The notes beneath the pieces were generated by a model, which worked only from the letters and a program-made list of their open reading frames with translations, did no database searches and was not told the origin of the DNA. This document shows, one piece after another, positions 41,003 through 55,818 of a stretch of 64,000 nucleotides of DNA. The position numbers were made by a program, and so were the translations under genes. The first letter of the stretch is position 1; each line of letters opens with the position of its first letter. The DNA is from an uncultured Planctomycetaceae bacterium (GTDB lineage Bacteria > Planctomycetota > Planctomycetia > Planctomycetales > Planctomycetaceae). The stretch is from contig CAWFGE010000015.1 of the NCBI GenBank assembly GCA_963815195.1, positions 672,001 through 736,000 of the forward strand. Direction: 5' to 3'.

Positions 41003-41497
41003 TTATTCGGACCGCGTGTTGTACTCCACATCAATCGCCACCAAGAGCAACACCGCGAAGGCATAGACCAACAGCGCCACCGTCGCTCCACCGACCAGGA
41101 TCCCAAAGCAGTTGTAAACGACGTACCGCCTCAAGGGGCCGGCTTCGGTTTTCATCACGATTTGCCCCATCTCCGCCAGCATCACGAAAGTTATTAAACC
41201 GATCAGCGCGGAGAAGATTTTCAAGATGAGCGAAAGCGTGCGGAGTTCCTCGTGCCGCCGGCGTTTTACGGGACGCGACGGGGCGGCGGAAACGGGAAGT
41301 CCGGGATCCGATGCCATGCGGTAATCCGCGAACTCCATTTCCGGTTCGGGGGCGGCACGCGTCAGCGGCGGCGGAACCCGCGGCCCGGCGGCCGACTTTT
41401 GACACTGGGGACACAACTTCGGGCGGGGTTTGTCGTCCGGCACCGCAAACTTCCGGCGACATCCCGGACACTCCCATTCCACGCGCTCGACGGCCAT
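41003..41497 (-). CDS. Zn-ribbon + two-TM membrane protein
   Basis: WECPGCRRKF..LCPQCQK, Pro-rich linker, two hydrophobic helices, ends IDVEYNTRSE. Confidence 0.65.
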   Translation of the reverse strand: MAVERVEWECPGCRRKFAVPDDKPRPKLCPQCQKSAAGPRVPPPLTRAAPEPEMEFADYRMASDPGLPVSAAPSRPVKRRRHEELRTLSLILKIFSALIGLITFVMLAEMGQIVMKTEAGPLRRYVVYNCFGILVGGATVALLVYAFAVLLLVAIDVEYNTRSE

Positions 41498-41764
41498 AAC
41501 AATTTGCCACTTCCAAAAAGGCGAATAAAAACCGATCACAAACAACTCCCTATTTAACGGAAAGCGATCGCCCATGCCAAGAAAATCGAGCGAATGTTCC
41601 ATCGCCGGCCGCAGCGTTCGCCATGCCGGTGGATTCGCGGCAGCCGGTTTTCTTTGGCTTCCAACATTTGACTGAAAACCTAAGGGACTGAGATAGTATG
41701 GAGTGTACGGTTTCTCTTGTGTTTGCTGCTGTGATCGATGTGCTGACCGAATCCGATCGACTCG

Positions 41765-44700
41765 ATGCCCAACTTTTCTTTTCAGTTCCACACGCTGCTT
41801 AATGAATTGGACGAACAGGACCAACAGGCGATTTTGGCCGGCGTCTTGTTTTACCCGGAAATCTCTGCGATCGGAAAGAACCAGGCGGCGGTGCGGCGTC
41901 AGCTTGTCCGGCAGATCAAACACATCGTCGGGGAAGGCCCGCCCAAGGATCTCTGGCGGCGGCGGGCTTTGGCGGAACCGCCGGTCGTGCGAACGATTTC
42001 GCTGACGCTTGAACCGCCTCGGAAACAAATCGCCTGGCGGTCGCCGGTGGAGTTGACGTTTCAGGTCGTCCCCTGGCGGCATGCGGAATCTTTTTGGCTG
42101 GCTTATGTCCCGGTTCTGGGGATCGAAGTCTTCGCGGACTCGGAAGCGGAACTCTTGGAACTCGTTCCGCGGCACATCGAGTTTGCCCTCAAGCGAAAAG
42201 GCATGACGGAATCGCTGGCTCCCTTGATCGCGCTGGAGCGGGTGGGGGCGCTCAAGTTGCTGACGATTCAAGAACACATCACGCTGCCGACGCCCAAAGA
42301 GATCGAAAAAGCCGAAGGAGAGCAGAAGCCGAAATCCACGCTCAAGGAAGTCGCCACGCGGATGTCTTCTTTGAAGCTTCCGCCGGCTTACGAAATGGAA
42401 TCGACGTTACAGCAGTTGGCGGAGCTTTTGGGCGGATCTCAGCCGCGAAGCATCCTCCTGGTGGGGCCGTCGGGCGTAGGCAAGACCGCGGCGGTTCAGG
42501 AACTCGTGCGCTCCCGGTCCCAGTTCGGATTGGGGGATAAAGAGTTCTGGACCAGCAGCGGAGCCGCGGTTTGTGGGCGGGACCTCGGGGTTCGGCATGT
42601 GGCAGGAGCGCTGCCGATCCCTCTGCGAAGAAACCAAGCGCCGCAAGAACGTGGTGCTGCATCTGGGATCGCTGTTGGAACTGATGGAAGTCGGGCGCGG
42701 CGGGGGGTGCGGGCAAGGCGTCGCGGACTTTCTCCGCATGCCGATGGACCGCGGGGAGATTGTGATCCTCGTCGAATGCACGCCGGAGCAGCGCGTGGTC
42801 GTCGAACGCGAATCGCCGGGCTTGTTGCGTTCGCTCGCCGAGGTCCGCGTGTTGGAGCCGCCCTTGGAAACGGGGCGAAAGATCTTAAAATCGTCCGCCG
42901 ACGCAAGGGCCGCGCGGAAACAAGCCGCGCTCAAGCCCGATGCCTTGGAACGGCTGGATCGGCTGCACCGCCGATATGCCACGTATTCGGTTTATCCGGG
43001 CCGGCCTTTGCGGTTTTTGGGAAACCTGCAAGAAGACACGCCGGCGGACCACACGATCTCGGCTCAAGATGTGATCGCGGCTTTTTCGCGCGAGACGGGT
43101 TTGCCGCGATCGCTGCTCGATGAATCGCAGCCTCTGGATCTGGACGACCTCCGGGCCTGGTTTTCGGGGCGAGTCTTCGGGCAAGGTCACGCGGTGGATT
43201 TGATTGTCGAATTGATCGCGGCCGTCAAAGCGGGGATGACGCAGCCCGACCGCCCGATCGCCTCGCTGCTCTTTATCGGTCCCACGGGCGTGGGCAAGAC
43301 GGAAATGGCCAAGACGATCGCCGAGTTTTTCTTCGGGGACCGAGAGCGATTGATCCGCATCGACATGAGCGAATACGCCGACCCCTTTGCGGTGGATCGA
43401 CTGATCGGCGGGCGGTTTCAGAAAGAAGGCGTGCTCACGTCGCAAGTTCGCGACCAGCCGTTCGGCGTGGTGCTGCTCGATGAATTTGAAAAAGCCGACC
43501 CCAGCCTGTTCGATTTGCTGCTCCAGGTTCTGGGCGAAGGCCGGCTGACGGATGCCTCCGGCCAACTCGCCGACTTTCGCAATTCGGTGGTAATCATGAC
43601 GTCCAACCTGGGCGTCGAGTCCACCGGCAAAGCGGGATTCGGCTTCCGGGACGATTCGGAAAACCCGCTCTTCCTTCGGCAGCATTTCACCGAGGAAGTC
43701 AAAAAGTTTCTCCGCCCGGAGCTTTACAACCGCATCGACCGCATCGTCGATTTCGCCCCGCTCGATCAAAACACGCTCCGCGGCATCACCCGCCGGCAGC
43801 TTGAGCTTCTCCAAGCGCGCGACGGCATCCAATACCGCGGCGTGGCGTTGTGTGTCGAGGACGGCGTGCTCGATGAATTGGCCGCGAAGGGATTTGATCC
43901 GCGCTACGGCGCGCGGCCGCTCAAGCGGGTTATGGAACGCGAACTCTTGAAACCCTTGGCCGTCGGCATCAACCGCTACACGGGGAATCATCCGCTCGCA
44001 GCCCACATCGATTGGGCCGAGGGCGTTCGGGTTCAGGTCAAAGCCGTCCCCGCCGAGCCCGGCACGCGGGTCAATCGGTTGGGCGTGGCCGCGAACGACA
44101 CCGCGGCCCAATTCGCCAAAGACCTGGCCACGCTGCGCCGCAAGGTGCTGCGGTTGGAAGGCTCCGTGACGACGTTGGAGTTCCAGAACGAACTGTTCCG
44201 CCTGGAGCAACAACGCGGCCAGCGCATCAAACGCAGCCTGCGACCCGACGGGGAACTCGAAGCCCGCTGGAAAGAATTGCACGAACACCTCGCCGCGATG
44301 AGCCGGTGCATCCAGGATGTGACGCATCTCGAGGACGATGTGCTGATGGCGATCTATCAAAACCAGGAAGTCGATCTGACGGATTCCCGCGAGATGTTTG
44401 GGGAGTTGGAATCCCTTTGGCAGGAGGTCCTGTGGTCGGCCTATGCCGCGACGCTCGATCGGAAGACGAGAGATCAAATCACGCTCGTGATTTATGCGGA
44501 AGACACCGCCGCGTTGATCGAACTCGCCGCCGCGTATCGCGCCCTGATCGAAAAGCGAGGCGACCTGGTGCGGTGGATGGGGTTAGTTTCGGCCCAAGGC
44601 CATTCCAAGCCGAAACTGGCGGACGGTCAATCCTGGATCGGAAAGATCAAAGTGAGCGAACCCAGCACGCGGTTGATCGGTCAGTCATTCAATCAGGATT

Positions 44701-45071
44701 GGAAGGCGGCTTTCAAAGCGGCTCCGAAGTGCGTGGGTCTCGGCCTGCGAATCACGGGCAAGTTGGCGTTTCCGCTGTATCATCTGGAGCAGGGCGTGCA
44801 TTTGATCTCGGCCGATAGGCACGGGCACCGGTGTTATGTCGATACGGCCCTCGCGGATTACCCCAAGTATCAACCGCCTTACAATGTGGACCGCAAAGGC
44901 TTTGCCGACGATCAAGTCAAACGCCGAACTTACAACAAGAATGCAAACAAAGTGGAAGACCATTGGCTCGACAAGGAACAGTTTTGGGACGGGGTGGTGC
45001 TCGAGGAACCGCTTATCGAACTCGTGGAAGCCCGCCTTCAACTCGACGCCGACGAGCTACTGGCCGAGTGA
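41765..45071 (+). CDS. Divergent ClpA/B-type double AAA+ ATPase 1 with release-factor-like C-terminus (frameshift near 42565)
   Basis: D1 GPSGVGKT; D2 [54 protein letters not shown]. Confidence 0.88.
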
Positions 45072-45098
45072 CGGGCGATAGGATGGGATGATTTGCCA

Positions 45099-48000
45099 AT
45101 GGAAGTTTCGGTTCCGATCTTGGTGCTCTCGACACGAAGGCCCGGGGAGAAAACGCCCACGTACATTTTGCGGCCGGTGTTTTTCCCTGCGCCGGAAACG
45201 CGGGATTACAACCTGGGGCGAGGCACCGCCAAATTGGCCGCCAGCTTGAGGAAGCTGCTCAAGCAGTTGGCGGAGGCCGGCAAGCACGAACGCTTTTCCC
45301 AGTACATCTATGCCCCGCCGTTGGAAGGGCAGCGGCTCAAGCTGACGTTGGAACTGAAGCGCTCGACCGAGAAGCCGGTGTTCTACGCGGTCTCGCTCAG
45401 GGCGCTCGATCGCCAGATTGCGTGTTTCCCGATGCTGCCGGGCGTGTGGTTCGAGATCCCGAAGGACGGGAACGAGAGCCTGCACGACCGGGCGACCGCA
45501 GTGCTCACGGAGTATTTCCGCAAATTGGAGCGGGAAGAAGAGACCGTCGCTCCCATTCTTCGCCGGGCTTCGCTGGACGGCAAAGCCTGGCTGACCACGG
45601 TGGAATTTGACGTGGAAACGGCCCCCGATCTCAAGAAGGCATCGTCGCTGTTGTTCGCCGCGTTGTTCGCGGGCGAGTCGATGGACGGGGCGACCGAATT
45701 GGACAACACCGGCCGCGATTTGGATTTGCTGTATCCGGACGACCTGGCCCGCAGCCTCTGCCGGGAACAAGAAGCCGAGGAGCTCACGCGATTGCTCGCC
45801 GCCCGCGACCGCCGGCCGGTGCTCGTGCTCGGTCCGCGGACGGTGGGCAAGACCGCGCTCGTTCACGAAGCGGTCTATCGAAAAGTCCAGCAGCAAACCT
45901 CCCGGTTTCGGAACCGCCGGCATACGTGGCTGTTGTCGCCGCAGCGTTTGATCTCCGGGATGAGCTACGTCGGCCAATGGGAGAACCGCCTGCTCGCGAT
46001 CCTCAAAGAATGCCGGAAAAAAGACCACATCTTGTACTTCGACGATCTGGTGGGGTTGTTCCGCGCGGGAGTCTCGCGGGATTCGGACCTGGCGGTGGCG
46101 CATGTGCTCAAGCCGATTCTGGAACAGCGGCAGGTGCGGATCGTGGGCGAAGCCACGCCCGCCGGGTTCCGCGTGCTGCGGGAACTCGACCGCGGGTTTG
46201 CGGATTTGTTTCACGTCATCTCGCTCCAGGAGCCCGATCAAGAAACGTCTTTGCGAGTGCTGCTCAGCGTGATTCGCCAGTTGGAACGGCGGTCTCGCTG
46301 CCAATTCGATCTGGAAGTGCTGCCGACGGTGATGGATTTGGCCCGGCGGTTTTCGCGGGAGCGGGCGTTTCCCGGACAGCCGGCGTTGATGCTCACGCGG
46401 CTCGCTTCGAGACATCCCGGCACGACGATTACCCGGCAGATCGTGCTCAAGGACTTCGAATCGCAAAGCGGCTTGAAGATCGCCTTTCTCGATCCCGCCG
46501 AGCGCCTCCGCCGGGAGGACATTCTCGCGGGCATCGAGCAGATGATGGTCGGCCAGAAACCCGCGCTGGAAGCCGCCGCCGATGTGATCTCGATTGCCAA
46601 AGCCCGCATCAACGATCCCGAACGGCCGTGGGGCACATTTTTGTTTCTCGGCCCGACCGGCGTGGGCAAGACGCAGTGCGCGAAGGCCATTGCCAATTAT
46701 CTGCTGGGCAGCCCCGACCGCATGATCCGCTTCGACATGAACGAGTTTCTTTCGCCCGGCGATGTGTCGCGGCTGGTGGGGACGCTCGATCAACCGGAAG
46801 GGCTCTTAACCTCGGCCATTCGCCGGCAGCCGTATTCGGTGGTGCTCTTGGACGAAATCGAGAAAGCCCATCCCGCCGTGTTCGATCTGTTGCTGCAGGT
46901 GCTGGGCGAAGGCCGATTGACCGATGCCCTGGGCCGGACCGCCGACTTCCGCAACGCGGTTTTGATTCTCACCTCCAACCTCGGCAGCCAGCAGGCGGAA
47001 AACTCTGTGGGGTTCCAGCCCAGCGAGATGTCCAAGCATCAAATCTACGTGGCGGCGGCGGAAAGATTTTTCCGCCCGGAGTTTTTGAACCGCTTGGATT
47101 TTCTGATTCCCTTCGATCGGCTGACCAAGCCGGAGATTCGCGAGATTTCCCGCCAGGCGGTGGAAGCACTCGGCGAACGGGAAGGGTTTGTGCGGCGGAA
47201 GTGCATTTTGCATCCGGACGATTCGGTGCTCGATTACGTGATCGCGCGGGGATTCGATCCGCGGTGGGGCGCGCGGGGCGTCCGGCGGATGATCGAGAAG
47301 GATTTGATTCGCCCGGTCGCCGCCGCCCTCGCGAAAACGCCGCCCGCCGGACCGACCGTGGTGAGCCTGTGGGCCTGTGACGATTCCATCCAAGTCGATG
47401 CCAGCACGCTGACGGAAATCGATCCGCTGCCCCGCTGCCGAGGCCAGTTTTCGCCGGACGCCTCCGAGCCGACGTTGGAGCGAATCCGCGCTCTCCTCAA
47501 GCGGCTCTTGGAAACCTGCCAGGCTCATCGGCCTTCCGGTCCCATGACGTCCGGCAACATTCGGCCGGAGCAGTTCCATTACCTCGCGATGGTCGAGGCG
47601 ATCAATCACCTGGAAACCCGCTGCCAGGAACTCAAGGAGCATTTGGGGGCCGGCGCGATCCACAACCGGCTCTCGGCGGACAGGGCGCTGCGCGGGGATT
47701 CAAATCTCCGGCCGGCGGGCGGGGCGGACGCATGTCTGGCGAAGTTGGGACACGCCGAGGCGTCGCATCATGCACGAAATGCTGACCGCCGACGACGTCC
47801 ACGATTATCTCCACGAAGTTTCCAGCGGCTCGGCGACTCCATGATCCCGCCGACGCGTTGGAGCCGCTCATCTCGCAACTGGCATTGCTCGACGTCCTGA
47901 CGCCGGCGGACGAGGGTTGGCGGCACGAGCACGTGCTGGCTGTTGTGCGGGGTTTGCAGTCCTCGCCCGTGGCCAGAAATCGCCTGCTCCGGATGTTGCC

Positions 48001-48538
48001 CGAAGCTTTTCAGTTTTCCCATTTCGGCGAAGACGCCCTCGCGGACTTGGGGTTGGAATCGCACGCCGCGCATTGGGATGTGAAAGATTCTCAAGACGCC
48101 GGCCTCGAGCTCTCGGAAGCGGCCCGGAAGCTTATGGCGGAAGTTCGCTGTGATGTGATCGGCTTCGAAGGACTGAATGCGATGCGATTGTTGTCCGGCG
48201 AAGGGGGCACGCACCTGTGCGTGCTGGCATCGGGGCGGTTGATCCCGTTTCAAGTCGAGCTGCGTATTGTTCCCGAAGACGCGACGGCGGATGATGTGAT
48301 TCGGTCCGTGCTGGCGGAGCATCTGGATTGGCTCAAGTCCCGGCGGTCGCAACCGGCCGCCGACAGCGATCCGCTTTTCTCTTTGAAGCCCGCCGTGCGG
48401 ATTTATGATGAGCGGGGATTGATTCTCGATTTTGCCACCGGACAGGCGTTGGAAGAGGTGAACCTGTCCGCTCCGCGGTTGCTCAAGGATTTGATTCTAG
48501 CCCGCCTGCCTTTGCCCGCGGAACTTGTGACAGGTTGA
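45099..48538 (+). CDS. Divergent ClpA/B-type double AAA+ ATPase 2 with release-factor-like C-terminus (frameshifts near 47722 and 47840)
   Basis: D1 GPRTVGKT; D2 [49 protein letters not shown]. Confidence 0.88.
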
Positions 48539-48544
48539 ACTGCC

Positions 48545-50836
48545 ATGCCGACGCATCGCGTGCCTATTTTGTTGATCCAGGATTCGGAGGGGTTTTGGTC
48601 GGCCCAGCCGGTGGAACCAGACACGGCTTTGGTGGGAACCGGAGCGACCGCCGCCGATGCCCTCGCCCAGATCAAAACGTATCTGGATTGGTCGTACGAT
48701 CGCGATTCATGCAAGGAGATTCCGGACATCCAGGGGCCTACGCTCGCGCGGTTCAAGATTTCTGTGCGGCCGCATTACGTGGAACCGAATCGCGTTTATC
48801 CCTGTGCCGAGTCGATGGAATTGCCCGTGGACTGCGTCCTGGGCAAGCGGTCGGATGGATTGCTCACTTGCGTGGCTCCGATCGTGGGCGTGCGATTCGA
48901 TTACAACGAAAAGGCCGCGTTGGAATCGCTGCTCACGGATGCCGTGCTCTCGCAGCTCGCGGGGAAGACGCCCAGGCAACTCTCGCGGTATCTGCCGCCC
49001 CGGGCGATGGAGATCCGGGAATTGGCGATCCGCGTGAAGCCCCGCATTTGGCGGGACGGGGGCGAAGTTTATCTCCCCACGCTGGAAGAGATCGCCGACC
49101 CCATTGGGGAGAAATCGGTGCGGAAGCGGTTTTCGCGGGCCTGGCTGCGGGACGCGGAACTCGCGGAGCTTCAAAGCCGCTTGACGGAGGAACGCGCGAG
49201 CGTGCTGCTGCTCGGCGTGCGAGGCGTGGGCAAGACGACCTTGCTCGTGGATGCCGTCCGCGACACCGAGCGGTTGCTCTATCGGGCGGCCAAAGCGGAG
49301 GAACACGAGAACGGCCGGCGTTACCGCCATCGGTTCTGGATGACGAGCGCCGCCCGCATCATCGCCGGGATGCGGTACTTGGGCGAATGGGAAGCCCGCT
49401 GTGAGGAGATTCTGTTCGAGCTCTCCGAAATCCAAGGCGTGTTGTGCATCGAGAATCTGCTCGACTTGCTGCGGATCGGCGGCGGCGAAGCGTCGCAAAG
49501 CATCGCGGCGTTTTTGATGCCCTATTTGCAGCAAGGGGAACTCAGGATCGTGGCCGAAGCCACCTTGGACGAGCTGTCCGCGGCGGATCGGTTGTTGCCG
49601 GGCTTTTCGGATCTGTTTCAGAAGCAGCGTGTCGAAGCCCTTTCGCATCGCAGCATGGTCCAAGTGTTGGAGAAGGTGATCGACGCCGCCCAGCAAACAC
49701 ATCGCCGCCCGGCGGAATGCCGGGTCGATGTTCGATTGCCGGAGATCATTTTGCATCTCCACGAACGCTTCTTGCCTTACCAATCCTTTCCCGGCCCGGC
49801 CGTGCAGTTTTTGCGGGATTTGATCAAGGCCGTCTTCAAAGAGGATCGCCCGCGTCTCGAACCGGCCGATGTTTTTCAGGCCTTTGCCCGGCGGACGGGT
49901 GTGCCGGTGCGGTTTTTGCGGGATGATGTTCCCCTCGATTCCGACGAAGTGTTCGCGGAGCTTTCCCGCCAGGTCATCGGCCAGGAGGAAGCGGTGCGGT
50001 CGGTCGTGGAATTGATCGCCACGTTCAAAGCGGGTCTGAACAATCCACGCCGGCCTTTGGGAGTCGAGCTGTTCTGCGGGCCGACGGGGGTGGGAAAAAC
50101 CGAGCTGGCCAAGAAGCTGGCCGAGTTCTGTTTTGGCGAAGGCGAGGATCCCGACCGCTTGTTTCGCTTGGACATGAGCGAATACCAAGGCTACGGCGCG
50201 GGCCAGCGGATTTTGATGCAGCCCGACCGCTCGCCGAGCCGGCTGATTTCGCACATCCGCGAGAAACCGTTCTCCGTGGTGTTGTTGGACGAGATCGAAA
50301 AAGCCGATGCCGAGGTGTTCGACCTGCTGCTGAATCTCTTCGAGGAAGGCCGGCTCACCGATGCCTATGGCCGCACCACGCATTTTCAATCGACGATCGT
50401 GATTATGACGTCGAACCTGGGAGCCGAAAGCGTCTCGGCGTTGGGCTTCAAGCCGGCTTTTGCGCCGGCGTACGAATCGGCCGCGATGCAGTTTTTCCGG
50501 CCGGAGTTTTTCAACCGCATCGACGAGGTGCTCTCGTTCGCGCCGCTTTCGGAAGAATCCGTGCTCGAAATCACCAAAAAAGAACTGGAGGCTCTGAGCC
50601 GGCGCGAGGGGCTCTCTGGCCGGGCGATTCGCTTGGCTTACGATGAGGGATTTTTGAAGGACGTCGCAAAGCGCGGCTACGATGCCCGGTACGGCGCCCG
50701 GCCGCTCAAACGGTTTTTAGAATCCTCCGTGGTCACGCCGATTTCCGAATACCTCGTTTCCCACCCGAATTCGCAGGGAGAGACTCTTCGCTTGCGTTTC
50801 ACCGAGGCCGGTCGCGTCGCCGTGACGCCGACTTAG
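48545..50836 (+). CDS. Divergent ClpA/B-type double AAA+ ATPase 3 (no C-terminal extension)
   Basis: D1 GVRGVGKT; D2 [47 protein letters not shown]. Confidence 0.9.
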
Positions 50837-50861
50837 TTCGGCCGAAATCGCCGTTTCGATT

Positions 50862-51939
50862 TTAAGCCGCCCCCAGCGACTCCACCACCAGCCGGCCCAT
50901 TTCTTTTGTGCCGATGGACTTTCCACCCGCGGCGATGTCGGGGGTGCGGTGGCCGGCTTTGAGGACCGTTCGAGACCGCGGTTTCGATCGCGGCGGCTTC
51001 TTCTTCCAGGTCCAGCGAATGCCTTAAGAGCATCGCAGTGGCCAGGATCGTCGCAAGCGGGTTGGCGATGCCCTTGCCCGCGATGTCCGGGGCGGAGCCG
51101 TGGATCGGTTCGTAAAGGCCGGGGCCGCTTTCGCCCAGCGACGCTGAGGGCAAAAGCCCCAAGGAACCAGGCAGCATCGAGGCCTCATCGGTGAGGATGT
51201 CGCCGAACATGTTCCCGGTGACGACGACATCGAACGACCTCGGCCGGGAGATCAGGTGCATCGCCATCGCATCCACGAGGACGACTTCGTATTCCAGATC
51301 GGGAAACTCGTCTTTCATCACCCGCGAGGCCACGCTCCGCCACAGCCGCGAGACTTCCAAGACGTTCGCCTTATCGACCGAGGTGACTTTCCCCCGCCGT
51401 TTTCGCGCGGCTTCCGCGGCGAGACGGACCACGCGTTCGATCTCCGGCGTGGAATAGATCATCGTGCTGTAGGCCACTTCGCCTTCCGGGATCGGCCGCC
51501 GGCCCGATTCGCCGAAGTAAATCCCGCCGGTCAGCTCGCGGAAAAACAGAATGTCCACGCCCTCGACGATCTCCCGCTTGAGCGGCGACGCGTCCAGAAG
51601 CTCGGGAAACGGGGCGATCGGCCGCAGGTTGGCGAACAGCTTCAATTCCTTGCGGATGCCCAAGAGTCCCGCTTCCGGGCGGGTCTTGGCGTCGGGGTCG
51701 TCCCACTTCGGCCCGCCGACGGCGCCGAGCAGCACGGCCGCTGAGGATTTGCATTCATCGAGCGTGCGATCGGGCAGCGGGGTGCCGAAGTCGTCGATCG
51801 CATTCCCGCCCATCGGACAGGAAACCGTCTCGAACCGGTGTCCGAACCGGCGGGCGATCGTTTCCAACACCTTTTGAGCCTCGGCCACAATCTCCGGCCC
51901 AATCCCGTCCCCCGGCAACAACGTCAACTTGGCATCCAC
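50862..51939 (-). CDS. leuB: 3-isopropylmalate dehydrogenase (frameshift near 50965)
   Basis: [64 protein letters not shown]. The true tail [16 protein letters not shown] is in the adjacent frame. Confidence 0.96.
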
Positions 51940-52070
51940 AACTCGGCCTTTCGCGAAAGAGGAAAAGTAGAACGCGAGTGTAACACAGCCGCCCGGGATT
52001 TTCAGGTCCCGCCTGGGAGCGGCTCGGTGTATCGCCCGCGCGTGTGTTTCACAGAAGTAAGTACGGACTT

Positions 52071-52149
52071 GGGTGGCACGCCCTGAGGAACGACGGGCGT
52101 GGTCTTGCGCTTTGCCACGCCCTTCGCTCCGCTCAGGGACGTGCCGCCC
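52071..52149. repeat. REP-like palindromic element (family B, copy 2)
   Basis: Near-identical to 33081-33160; flanked by imperfect inverted gtgtgtttcaca (~52042) and tatgaaacacatac (~52191). Confidence 0.9.
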
Positions 52150-52325
52150 AATCCCCTGGAAAACAGGGCGAAAGATTATCCACCGATTTTTATGAAACAC
52201 ATACCGCCCGCGCAAAACCTTGGCCCTGTGCTTGCATTGGGGCGGAGAATTCACGATGATACCGGGCTCGGATTTTGAATTAGTCTTGGCACATGCGTTG
52301 ATCACCACACGAAGGAATTTGAGTC

Positions 52326-54072: not shown

Positions 54073-54302
54073 GGATACTTTTTCTTTGGAGTGGTGATGA
54101 CATCGAAAGTCGCCCTTCGCGGAACGACCGGCGACTTTCCTTGTTCATGGTGATTCGTCTTTTGCGAATCGGCAAGTGATTTGGAGCGGTTCCTCGGAAT
54201 TTCGTGGGGAAACGAGTCGGGGCGGGGGATTGTTCTTCCGCGGGACGCGCGCGTAAGATCTTAAGGCGATCCGTTTCCCTTAAAAAACCCCCCGAGACAC
54301 CG

Positions 54303-55818
54303 ATGACCGCTTCCGCTCTCAAACTGCCTCTGGAAATCCCCGGACCGCCGGTTTGGGGACCGGTGGGGCGATGGCGGCAGATGCTCTGGTTCGCCCGGGA
54401 TTCCATCGGCCTGGGGATTGAACTCTTTCACAAATACGGCCCGGTGGCGGCGATTGCCCAGGGCGGCGGCACGCGGTTGATGTCGCCTTATCCGAATTGT
54501 CCCGGCAGCGTGCTGGCGTATGGCCCCGACTTGACGCAGGAAGTCGCCACCAACCACGAGGTGTATCACAAATTCCACTTGAGCGGCCGAATGCACCCGC
54601 TAGGCGATGACCGACCCAGCCGAGCGGGGCTCAAGCAGTTCGGGGCCGGGTTGTTCGCCGTCAACGAGGACGAACACCGCCGGCACCGGAAACTCATGGC
54701 CCCCGCGTTCTACAATTCCCGCATCGCCGGCTACCGCGATGTGATGGTCAGTATTACCCGGGAAGCCTTAGAGCATTGGCGGCCCGGCGAGGTGTTGGAC
54801 ATCCAAAAGGAAATGCAAGACATCGCCCAGGGCATCGCCAGCAAAGCTTTGTTCGGCGAAGACCTCGCGGCCCAAGGCGACGAGATGACCAGCACGGTCC
54901 AGGACGCCCTGTTGATGATCGCCGCCCCGCTGGTGCGACTCTTGCCCTATAACGTGCCGGGCCTGCCTTACCGCAGACTGCTCCGGGTCGCGCAGAATGT
55001 CTTACGACCGGACAGAGGGCATCATCGCCCGTCGCCGGGCCATCGGCACCGATGGGAACGATGTGCTTTCCATGCTCATCAAAGCCCGGGACGAAGACGG
55101 CGGACTGACCGAAGACGAACTCATCGGGCACGTCGGCGTGCTGTTCGCCGCGGGGCACGAAACGTCCGCGAACGCGCTGACCTGGACGCTGTTTTTGCTC
55201 TCGCAGCATCCAGAGATTCACGCCGACCTCTGCGATGAAATCGCACTTGACCTAGGCGACAGCCTGCCCACGGTGGAGGTCTTGGAGCAGATGCCGTTGT
55301 TGGAGCGGGTCGTCAAAGAGAGCCTGCGAATCTTGCCACCGGTGCCTTGGAACGGGCGGATTTGCTCGCGGGACACCGAACTCGGGGGCTACCATTTGCC
55401 GGCGGGCTGCGAAGTGCTCGCGAGCATCTACCACACGCACCACATGCCGGAACTCTATCCGCTGCCCGAGCGCTTCGATCCCGCGCGGTGGGAAACGATC
55501 ACGCCGACGGGCTACGAATACCAGCCCTTCAGCGCGGGGCCGCGAATTTGCATTGGGGCCGGGTTTGCGATGCTGGAAATCAAAATCGTGCTCTCGATGC
55601 TGCTCTCGCGGTTCCGCGTGGAATATCTGCCGAATCAAACCATCCAGCGCTGCGGCACGATCGTCTCCGCCCCGCGCTACGGAATGAAAATGAAAATCCA
55701 CCCGCCCGACCGCCAATTCTCCCAAGGCGTCGGCGGCGTGAAAGGCAACGTGCGCGAAATGGTCGATCTTGAGGGAAATCCCAATGACCAAATCCCAATG
55801 ACCAATGGGAAACGGTGA
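54303..55818 (+). CDS. Cytochrome P450 (frameshift near 55000)
   Basis: HRRHRKLMAPAF; AAGHETSA; KESLR (ExxR); PERFDP; FSAGPRICIG heme-thiolate motif. Confidence 0.95.

Follow-up and report, generated by a model that had tools for sequence, protein, structure and literature searches.

In a 64,000-nucleotide (nt) stretch of the genome of an uncultured Planctomycetaceae bacterium (contig CAWFGE010000015.1, positions 672,001 to 736,000 of the forward strand; the whole stretch is referred to as the window and numbered from its first nucleotide), three adjacent genes, designated g1, g2 and g3, encode three paralogs that diverged long ago within a distinct subfamily of Clp/Hsp100 proteins. Each protein carries a predicted HicB-like N-terminal domain in front of two AAA+ modules, D1 and D2, and g1 ends in a class-I release factor (RF) module that has lost the catalytic GGQ motif and the codon-reading tripeptide, as g2 probably also does. 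The three genes are very probably functionally interdependent, a conclusion that stands much more firmly than the composite model of their joint action set out below.

The first gene, g1 (41765..45071, + strand; Pfam AAA_2 at E 1e-42), encodes a Clp-like ATPase of ~1100 amino acids (aa) when read through two overlapping open reading frames (ORFs; 41765-43123 and 42573-45071), in the order N-terminal domain, degenerate D1, active D2 and RF-like tail. The second, g2 (45093..48538, +; AAA_2 at E 5e-45), is built like g1 and is ~1140 aa long when read through ORFs 45093-47900 and 47858-48538. It is likely to start at ATG 45099, with TTG 45093 a possible alternative. The third, g3 (48545..50836, +; AAA_2 at E 3e-36), is an intact frame for a 763-aa Clp-like ATPase without the RF tail. 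Full-length orthologs of g3 are 745-800 aa long and 42-90% identical, and are named in databases only as 'AAA family ATPase' or 'ClpC'. The first-pass annotation of the window, which had reported three co-oriented and tightly spaced Clp-like genes, was right on this point: all lie on the + strand, with 27 nt between the g1 stop codon and ATG 45099 and 6 nt between g2 and g3.

All three products fall in the class I (double AAA+) Clp/Hsp100 superfamily, with an AAA_2-type D2 followed by ClpB_D2-small (E 7e-15, 2e-9 and 1.5e-14 for g1, g2 and g3, respectively) and with a D1 P-loop present. The Clp_N repeats and the ClpB middle domain had been described as lacking, and the profile searches agree: Clp_N gave no Pfam match in any of the 5 ORF pieces, and the ClpA model, which itself has no middle domain, aligned uninterrupted across D1-D2. 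Scores against the models of the established families were far below their cut-offs in every case, namely 291-335 bits for ClpB (TIGR03346, cut-off 1232; only the D2 part aligned), 257-317 bits for ClpA (TIGR02639, cut-off 993), 208-262 bits for ClpV/TssH (TIGR03345, cut-off 885) and 204-263 bits for ClpG/ClpK (cut-off 1900). As controls, a labelled planctomycete ClpB scored 1306 and labelled ClpV proteins scored 1148-1285.

A phylogeny, one of the checks suggested in the first-pass annotation, was built from D1+D2 (75 rows, 500 columns; IQ-TREE quick search, LG+G4), with 22 orthologs per group drawn at random from 52 g1, 64 g2 and 95 g3 sequences and with planctomycete ClpB, ClpC-like and ClpV references labelled by their NCBIfam scores. 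The g1, g2 and g3 groups were each monophyletic, with support of 95, 100 and 100, respectively, in the Shimodaira-Hasegawa-like approximate likelihood ratio test (SH-aLRT). A branch of 0.85 parts them, together with a fourth paralog (P4, described below), from ClpB, ClpC-like and ClpV proteins. The homologs are accordingly not nested in the canonical clades; the branching among g1, g2, g3 and P4 is weakly supported (31-80).

The annotation had also assigned two AAA+ modules to each protein. This holds without reservation for D2, but D1 gave only a weak Pfam match to AAA_16 (29-34 bits, cut-off 32.6), and motif counts over the 52 g1, 64 g2 and 95 g3 orthologs (211 sequences) indicate that the D1 ring keeps a nucleotide-binding P-loop while being catalytically degenerate. 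The D1 Walker A motif is retained in all three groups, and the DE pair of Walker B is found in 0/211 sequences. The D1 core of g1 (42464..42683, +) comprises Walker A GPSGVGKT (42464-42487), the pore-loop region ...FGMWQERC (42591-42614) and, at the Walker B position, VVLHLGSLLEL (42651-42683), from which the acidic pair is absent; the DE columns hold G followed by N, S, P, Q, G or A in 49/52 g1 orthologs. In the D1 core of g2 (45831..46058, +), Walker A is GPRTVGKT, the pore loop is SGMSYVGQWENR, and the Walker B position reads ILYFDDLVGL, the substitution of DD for DE being seen in 58/64 orthologs. The D1 core of g3 (49214..49468, +) has Walker A GVRGVGKT and EN in place of DE, and its group has E/D then N/R/S in these columns. 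None of the three consensus sequences has a basic residue at the arginine-finger positions of D1. The column of the D1 pore-loop tyrosine is occupied by Y/F in 58/64 g2 and 95/95 g3 sequences; in g1 it is G in 49/52, with F/Y one position on in 47/52.

D2 is predicted to form a canonical motor ring. In g1, D2 with D2-small (43251..43967, +) has Walker A at 43278, Walker B at 43473, sensor-1 TSN at 43599, the Arg-finger motif at 43713 and GAR at 43905, and the corresponding regions of g2 (46623..47336, +) and g3 (50054..50791, +) were delimited by Pfam and motif positions. All five motifs follow the canonical form in every group. The D2 motifs quoted in the annotation were located in each gene, GRLTD being found in the translations and the consensus. 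The D2 pore loop departs from this pattern: GYVGY is replaced by a shorter loop, which includes an aromatic residue in 46/64 g2 (GTF.QPEG) and 23/52 g1 sequences, and no aromatic residue is conserved in g3.

Between sensor-1 and the Arg-finger motif, at the site of the ClpP-docking loop of ClpC, all three proteins have an LGF-type loop, which is AGFGF in g1 (43632..43646, +), SVGFQ in g2 (47004..47018, +) and ALGFK in g3 (50438..50452, +). The pattern [ILVMAF]G[FLMI] occurs at a fixed distance after sensor-1 in 42/52 g1, 54/64 g2, 85/95 g3 and 2/2 P4 sequences, and among the planctomycete references it occurs in 2/2 ClpC-like, 0/2 ClpB and 0/3 ClpV proteins. According to Jiang & Schmitz (2023, PMC10149685), this loop docks ClpC on ClpP and serves as a marker that is absent from ClpB. 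The g1-g3 proteins carry the LGF/VGF loop by which ClpC is recognised. The three proteins may therefore dock on ClpP through these loops. The annotation had noted that clpP and clpS are not nearby, which is correct, as clpP matches lie on contig C13, with weaker ones on C12 and C19, clpS matches lie on C12 and C8, and the contig of the window (C15) has none of either gene. Given the LGF-type loop in all three proteins, the missing clpP in the vicinity does not imply independence of ClpP, and the independence implied in the annotation is doubtful. The matches on C13 represent two tandem clpP genes (G000:C13:548856-550245, -), the second of which is split in two frames (profile positions 2-105 and 102-181).

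Dedicated appendages, which the annotation had foreseen, are present at the N-terminus of all three proteins and at the C-terminus of g1 and g2. The N-terminal domain of g3 (48545..49159, +; predicted local distance difference test score, pLDDT, 87.8) was modelled over the first ~205 residues as two beta-beta-beta-alpha units, a fold that resembles HicB and double-stranded RNA-binding domains (dsRBDs) and has an inserted beta-rich repeat. In VIA-align, HicB entry 6g1c was the top match (Z 9.0, root-mean-square deviation 2.4, 80 aligned), followed by five more HicB-type entries at Z 7.0-8.5 and by dsRBDs at Z 4-5. A Foldseek search with this domain returned nothing at E<=1e-3, and Pfam gave no HicB match. 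The N-terminal domain of g1 (41765..42409, +) is a homolog of that of g3 (HHalign probability 97.7%, E 1.6e-12, 197 columns), and that of g2 (45093..45776, +) is a more diverged one (probability 85.9%, E 5e-6, 156 columns), and a HicB-like domain is predicted to be common to all three proteins. Of 1.84 billion cluster representatives, 412 were matched by the profile of this domain, 317 of them at E<=1e-10. In most of the 150 matches listed, the domain begins at residue 1 or close to it; the proteins are ~715-860 aa long or shorter, the latter being presumably truncated. When the three N-terminal domains were submitted to complex prediction with the g3 partner, the score was 0.83, as compared with 0.79 after the g2 chain had been swapped for an unrelated protein, and the prediction did not discriminate between them. 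In one g2 ortholog, the N-terminal domain match (G401:C2:779345-780001) holds one in-frame TAG.

The tail of g1 (43968..45068, +; 367 aa; model pLDDT 88.3) was identified as RF-like by both profile and fold searches. A profile of 30 g1 tails (A2) found RF2 of T. thermophilus (2ihr) at E 4.6e-9; RF1 or RF2 accounted for 26 of the 33 PDB matches listed to E 1, and the other seven (coiled-coil proteins and MCM8) were weaker than E 8e-4. Foldseek with the tail model gave 44 structures at E<=1e-3, with the rows listed all being RF1, RF2 or mitochondrial RF (best E 1.7e-8, probability 1.00, template modelling score up to 0.47 for a multi-domain chain, identity to real RFs 11-16%). The tail of g2 (47337..48535, +), which is more diverged than that of g1 and is broken by two frame changes, was recognised from profiles: that of 30 g2 tails (A3) gave 7 PDB matches, all RF2, at E about 1e-3, and HHalign paired the g2-tail and g1-tail profiles with a probability of 97.0% (E 1e-10, 282 columns).

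As compared with RF1/RF2 (PrfA/PrfB), the tails retain motifs such as E-x-G-x-H and R-x-Y...D, but they lack GGQ and are fused behind a Clp D2 rather than free-standing. GGQ, SPF and PxT are all absent from the g1 tail in the window. In the model of this tail ~20 residues stand at the site of the GGQ domain, which is largely gone, and domain 1, with its helices, is kept together with the domain 2/4 sheet. A GGQ after residue 700 was seen in 6/54 g1 and 3/70 g2 orthologs at no fixed place, and these are chance occurrences.

The same genome encodes the fourth paralog P4 (locus L028, G000:C23:473771-476801, -; frameshifted once), a Clp-like ATPase with a full-length, GGQ-less RF2-like module that matches positions 3-353 of 353 of the prfB model (E 1e-33 to 1e-40) and has no GGQ or SPF. 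P4 is intact (1015-1019 aa) in the same-genus genomes G002 and G003, where it lies beside a divergently transcribed gene of ~750 aa. It shares with g1-g3 the subfamily clade, the dead D1, the canonical D2 and the LGF-type loop, and with g1 and g2 the GGQ-less RF tail. It differs from them in having no HicB-like N-terminal domain, in the full length of its RF2-like module and in being solitary, also in genomes without the set.

The combination of these features separates g1-g3 from the known Clp unfoldases. Like ClpC/ClpA, they have two AAA+ modules, a D2 of AAA_2 and ClpB_D2-small, no long ClpB middle domain, and a hydrophobic-Gly-Phe loop where planctomycete ClpC has 'FGF'. In contrast to ClpC/ClpA, a HicB-like domain stands in place of Clp_N, both the Walker B glutamate and the arginine fingers are missing from D1, a shorter loop without the GYVGY tyrosines forms the D2 pore loop, two members have an RF-like tail, and what is a single gene in ClpC/ClpA is represented by three co-inherited paralogs. 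Neither the Clp_N repeats nor the active D1 (Walker B DE, arginine fingers) that mark ClpC is found in g1-g3. According to PMC10149685, ClpI of Actinomycetota is an additional class of double-ring Clp unfoldases, defined bioinformatically, of which some have LGF motifs, as g1-g3 do. It combines an M-domain like that of ClpC with ATPase motifs that are intact in both rings, whereas g1-g3 have neither. Release factors are mentioned 0 times in that article. In a survey of release-factor evolution (PMC6514570), 'Clp' is mentioned 0 times and AAA+ solely with Cdc48. No Clp/AAA+-RF fusion and no such three-gene set was found to be described in the literature searched, which did not extend to subscription journals and supplements.

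The distribution of the three genes was examined in 401 Planctomycetota genomes, with g3 scored by its N-terminal domain plus D1. This sample yielded g3 in 28 genomes, the g1-tail profile in 27 (all within the 28) and the g2 N-terminal domain profile in 25 (all within the 27), and the other 373 genomes have none of the three genes. Among the exceptions, G371 is 67% complete and G165 is in 1330 contigs, and in G052 the g2 ortholog was seen by BLAST (L051) but is under the profile threshold. The carriers span at least 10 family codes, though related genomes are not independent of one another. From 30 regions fetched around g3 matches in this phylum, 23 had a full upstream flank, and 22 of these 23 show the order g1-g2-g3 on one strand in single open frames of ~1100, ~1100 and ~760 aa. 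In G137 and G230 each of the three genes is on a contig of its own. In G024, from the same family and another genus, the g3 ortholog (52% identity) adjoins the g2 ortholog, and the g1 ortholog is near the end of another short contig.

Relatives across phyla were sought in a collection of species-representative genomes with the family-specific peptide pattern [AS]G[MTA]x[YF]LG[QE]W[EQ], taken from the D1 pore-loop region. At least 638 stretches matched, and at least 616 of them code for relatives; the best 80 of these at least 616 bear the labels Planctomycetota (43), Acidobacteriota (22), Verrucomicrobiota (5) and a few metagenome-assembled genomes (MAGs) of Bacillota, Pseudomonadota and Actinomycetota. 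The set occurs in at least three phyla. Its carriers include the cultured Gemmata algarum JC673 (L117, full set) and Zavarzinella formosa DSM 19928 (L102), and so the function of the set is directly testable. In the 52 loci of the cross-phylum collection with at least 7.3 kb upstream, the arrangement is g1-g2-g3 in 27, g2-g3 in 5 (two with g1 downstream), g2-insert-g3 in 3 and g3 alone in 17. Five lone-g3 genomes were tested, and in 5/5 a g1 ortholog is encoded elsewhere (43-48% identity, frames of 1078-1151 aa), in two of them paired with a neighbour of ~1135-1256 aa. The gap from g1 to g2 is -4 nt in 23/48 loci (median -4 nt) and that from g2 to g3 is -4 nt in 17/63, spacings that often suggest translational coupling. 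Thus, the view that specialised paralogs are kept as a set is borne out by the three clades (SH-aLRT 95-100), the recurrent order and the co-occurrence even of unlinked genes, and homologs do not occur mostly as single genes. The set is nonetheless accessory and patchily distributed, as it was not found in 3 genomes of the same genus (85-94% complete) or in 20 other genomes of the same family in the phylum sample.

Several loci vary in detail. In L098 and L103 (labelled as Blastocatellia and 'Actinomycetota' MAGs), g2 and g3 are adjacent and g1 lies ~6 kb downstream on the same strand, and in L064, L072 and L138 a segment of 2.8-6 kb is inserted between g2 and g3. The frames of two g1 orthologs (L037:3464-7744 and L059:2379-6899; 1427 and 1507 aa) extend ~320 and ~420 codons, respectively, upstream of the aligned start, which reflects either an N-terminal extension or merely the scarcity of stop codons in GC-rich DNA.

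A composite model can be proposed in which the three proteins would assemble in one mixed ring, plausibly with two copies of each. D1 would serve as the nucleotide-bound assembly ring and D2 as the motor, and the ring would dock on the ClpP of the cell via the LGF-type loops. The dead RF modules, and perhaps the dsRBD-like N-terminal domains, would recruit the machine to the ribosome, where the RF modules may occupy or sense the region of the A site while the peptide is not released. The motor would then extract the nascent chain or a stuck factor from a stalled or damaged ribosome and pass it to ClpP. We judge that this combination of a mixed ring, ClpP docking and ribosome targeting has about an even chance of being correct. 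Its most specific form, a hetero-hexameric Clp unfoldase of three paralogs that is brought to the ribosomal A site by dead RF modules and is coupled to ClpP, is tentative and rather doubtful as a whole.

If that specific form is true, the set would represent a previously unknown route of ribosome-associated quality control or rescue, a functional analogue of eukaryotic Dom34-ABCE1 or Vms1-Cdc48, and would be the first mixed ring to occur naturally among Clp/Hsp100 proteins. Should the tails bind ribosomes, they would couple an unfoldase/protease to translation in a new way, and bacteria would have, in addition to tmRNA, ArfA/ArfB and RqcH, a fourth means of dealing with ribosomes that are stalled or damaged. 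Should the three proteins mix, they would offer a tractable bacterial model of hetero-hexameric AAA+ rings. What sets them apart from the characterised Clp machines is the presence of three paralogs, a dead D1 tier, a ClpC-type loop, a new N-terminal domain and a gutted release factor on two of them.

A number of observations weigh against the composite model. P4, the nearest relative, works singly, and homo-oligomers are therefore feasible for this fold. The RF modules are located at the C-terminal, ClpP-facing side of D2, and substrates normally enter at the D1 side, which complicates the geometry of a ribosome-motor-ClpP assembly. The tails have none of the known elements that read codons or contact the peptidyl-transferase centre, so that ribosome binding has to be assumed. 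The missing D2 pore-loop tyrosine is odd for a processive translocase that feeds ClpP, and 10-20% of orthologs have no strict hydrophobic-Gly-Phe/Leu match in the docking loop. The tight linkage is not universal, given that g3 is solitary within ~10 kb in 17/52 cross-phylum loci, and the absence of the set from same-genus and same-family genomes indicates that it is dispensable.

Characterised bacterial Clp/Hsp100 machines are homo-hexamers encoded by single genes, and their substrates are recognised by Clp_N domains and adaptors. It may accordingly be that g1, g2 and g3 do not mix and form three separate homo-hexamers that act in one pathway, either sequentially or by substrate class, which would explain their co-inheritance. 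Besides the precedent of the characterised family, the occurrence of P4 as a lone gene in G001-G003 and this genome, with a fold functional without partners, and the loci in which g3 is unlinked from g1/g2 (17/52) are in line with this explanation. It is disfavoured by the near-perfect three-way co-occurrence, the fixed order and the frequent 4-nt overlaps, which are typical of complex subunits, and by the uneven spread of pore-loop and tail features among the three proteins, which is reminiscent of Pex1/Pex6. The latter is a eukaryotic hetero-hexameric AAA+ ring with an inactive D1, and it resembles the proposed assembly in having paralogous subunits in one ring, a D1 that binds nucleotide but is dead in hydrolysis, and an active D2; it belongs to another AAA+ clade and is eukaryotic, whereas the heteromer of g1-g3 is only proposed. 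Separate homo-hexamers are, on balance, unlikely.

The tails could also have lost all connection with the ribosome and been co-opted for oligomerisation, regulation or adaptor binding in a general stress unfoldase/protease. The loss of GGQ, SPF/PxT and most of the GGQ domain, the identity to real RFs of only 11-16% and the position of the tails on the ClpP-facing side of D2 would all fit such a reuse. However, the helices of RF domain 1 and the domain 2/4 sheet, with which real factors contact the ribosome, are the parts retained with high model confidence, and the module has been kept in three lineages (g1, g2 and P4), in P4 at full length. A ribosome-unrelated role of the tails is considered about as unlikely as separate homo-hexamers.

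The annotation had further raised the possibility of an anti-phage or conflict function. In such a system, the dead RF modules would either sense phage interference with translation or serve as decoys for it, and the effector would be the motor, alone or together with ClpP. The patchy, transfer-like spread (28/401 Planctomycetota, not found in the same genus, yet present in Acidobacteriota and Verrucomicrobiota) would suit this role, and the D2 modules match the PADLOC profiles DolB and PDC-M37B at E 1e-15 to 1e-30. However, the PADLOC matches are limited to the generic ClpB-like D2 (about 130-300 of the 375-390 profile positions), and the 106 flanking ORFs of 14 loci, together with the flanks in the window, are metabolic, housekeeping or Pfam-less, with no integrase, transposase or restriction gene. 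As a partner of Dodola DolB/PDC-M37B, no gene recurs in the flanks, although no search was aimed at DolA. Likewise, an all-versus-all comparison of flanking ORFs from 24 loci gave no conserved fourth gene, and recovered just the three genes, antisense shadows and small ORFs in close relatives from one family. The anti-phage function is thus left without support from the neighbourhood and appears very unlikely.

The breaks in g1 and g2 were placed by comparison with the intact orthologs of G024. In g1 the frame changes once, between 42567 and 42577: the 1193-aa frame of the G024 ortholog aligns with frame 1 (41765-42577) and then with frame 2 (42567-45038). In g2 it changes twice, once within 47676-47763 and once within 47833-47866, the alignment with the G024 ortholog (1170 aa, 53% identity) passing from frame 2 (45099-47675) to frame 3 (47764-47832) and then to frame 1 (47867-48526). 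The most likely and most economical explanation is that these are indels of the assembly, because the canonical clpB (1 change) and clpC (2 changes) of the same genome are broken alike, and so are P4 (1 change), one of the two tandem clpP genes and a cytochrome P450 gene. The pieces of these other genes are 70-92% identical to intact orthologs. The P450 gene lies in the window (54204-55818, +) in two overlapping frames, 54204-55238 and 54997-55818, which match Pfam positions 50-180 and 234-443 of one model, and its split is another sign of assembly indel errors. The classified g1 and g2 genes of relatives are single open frames, save for a few split copies (L089, L109 and L125).

Public contigs with this DNA come from one soil-metagenome run that holds 0.51 of the sampled words, and the Logan contigs are short, with a depth of 3-5. 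They give no useful cover of 42007-42620 (depth 0 and 0.85) or 47533-47839 (depth 0). No RNA run is listed among the holders of this DNA. A programmed frameshift as in prfB was rejected, since the shift in g1 sits in D1 and not in the tail and the orthologs are unshifted. That g1 and g2 are true pseudogenes of a decaying system, as three frame changes across two of the three genes and an ongoing loss in the lineage (the set was not found in 3/3 same-genus genomes) might suggest, is highly improbable, given that well-conserved genes of this genome are broken in the same way, that the pieces contain no in-frame stops and that the public contigs reach only the low depth stated above.

A scan for promoters and terminators gave chance-level results, with 2 promoter-like and 11 terminator-like sites where 1.3 and 14.3, respectively, were expected; one of the promoter-like sites, at 41668-41697, lies upstream of g1. 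A small ORF (41003-41560, -) is divergent from g1 and encodes a protein with a zinc-ribbon-like start (CxxC...CxxC) and a hydrophobic C-terminal half. It has no Pfam match and is not kept beside the three-gene set at other loci. On the other side, g3 is met at its end by a convergent gene of the isopropylmalate/isocitrate dehydrogenase family (50833-52308, -; Iso_dh, E 3e-128). The open frame of this dehydrogenase gene overlaps the g3 stop codon by 4 nt, and its true start is probably well inside the frame.

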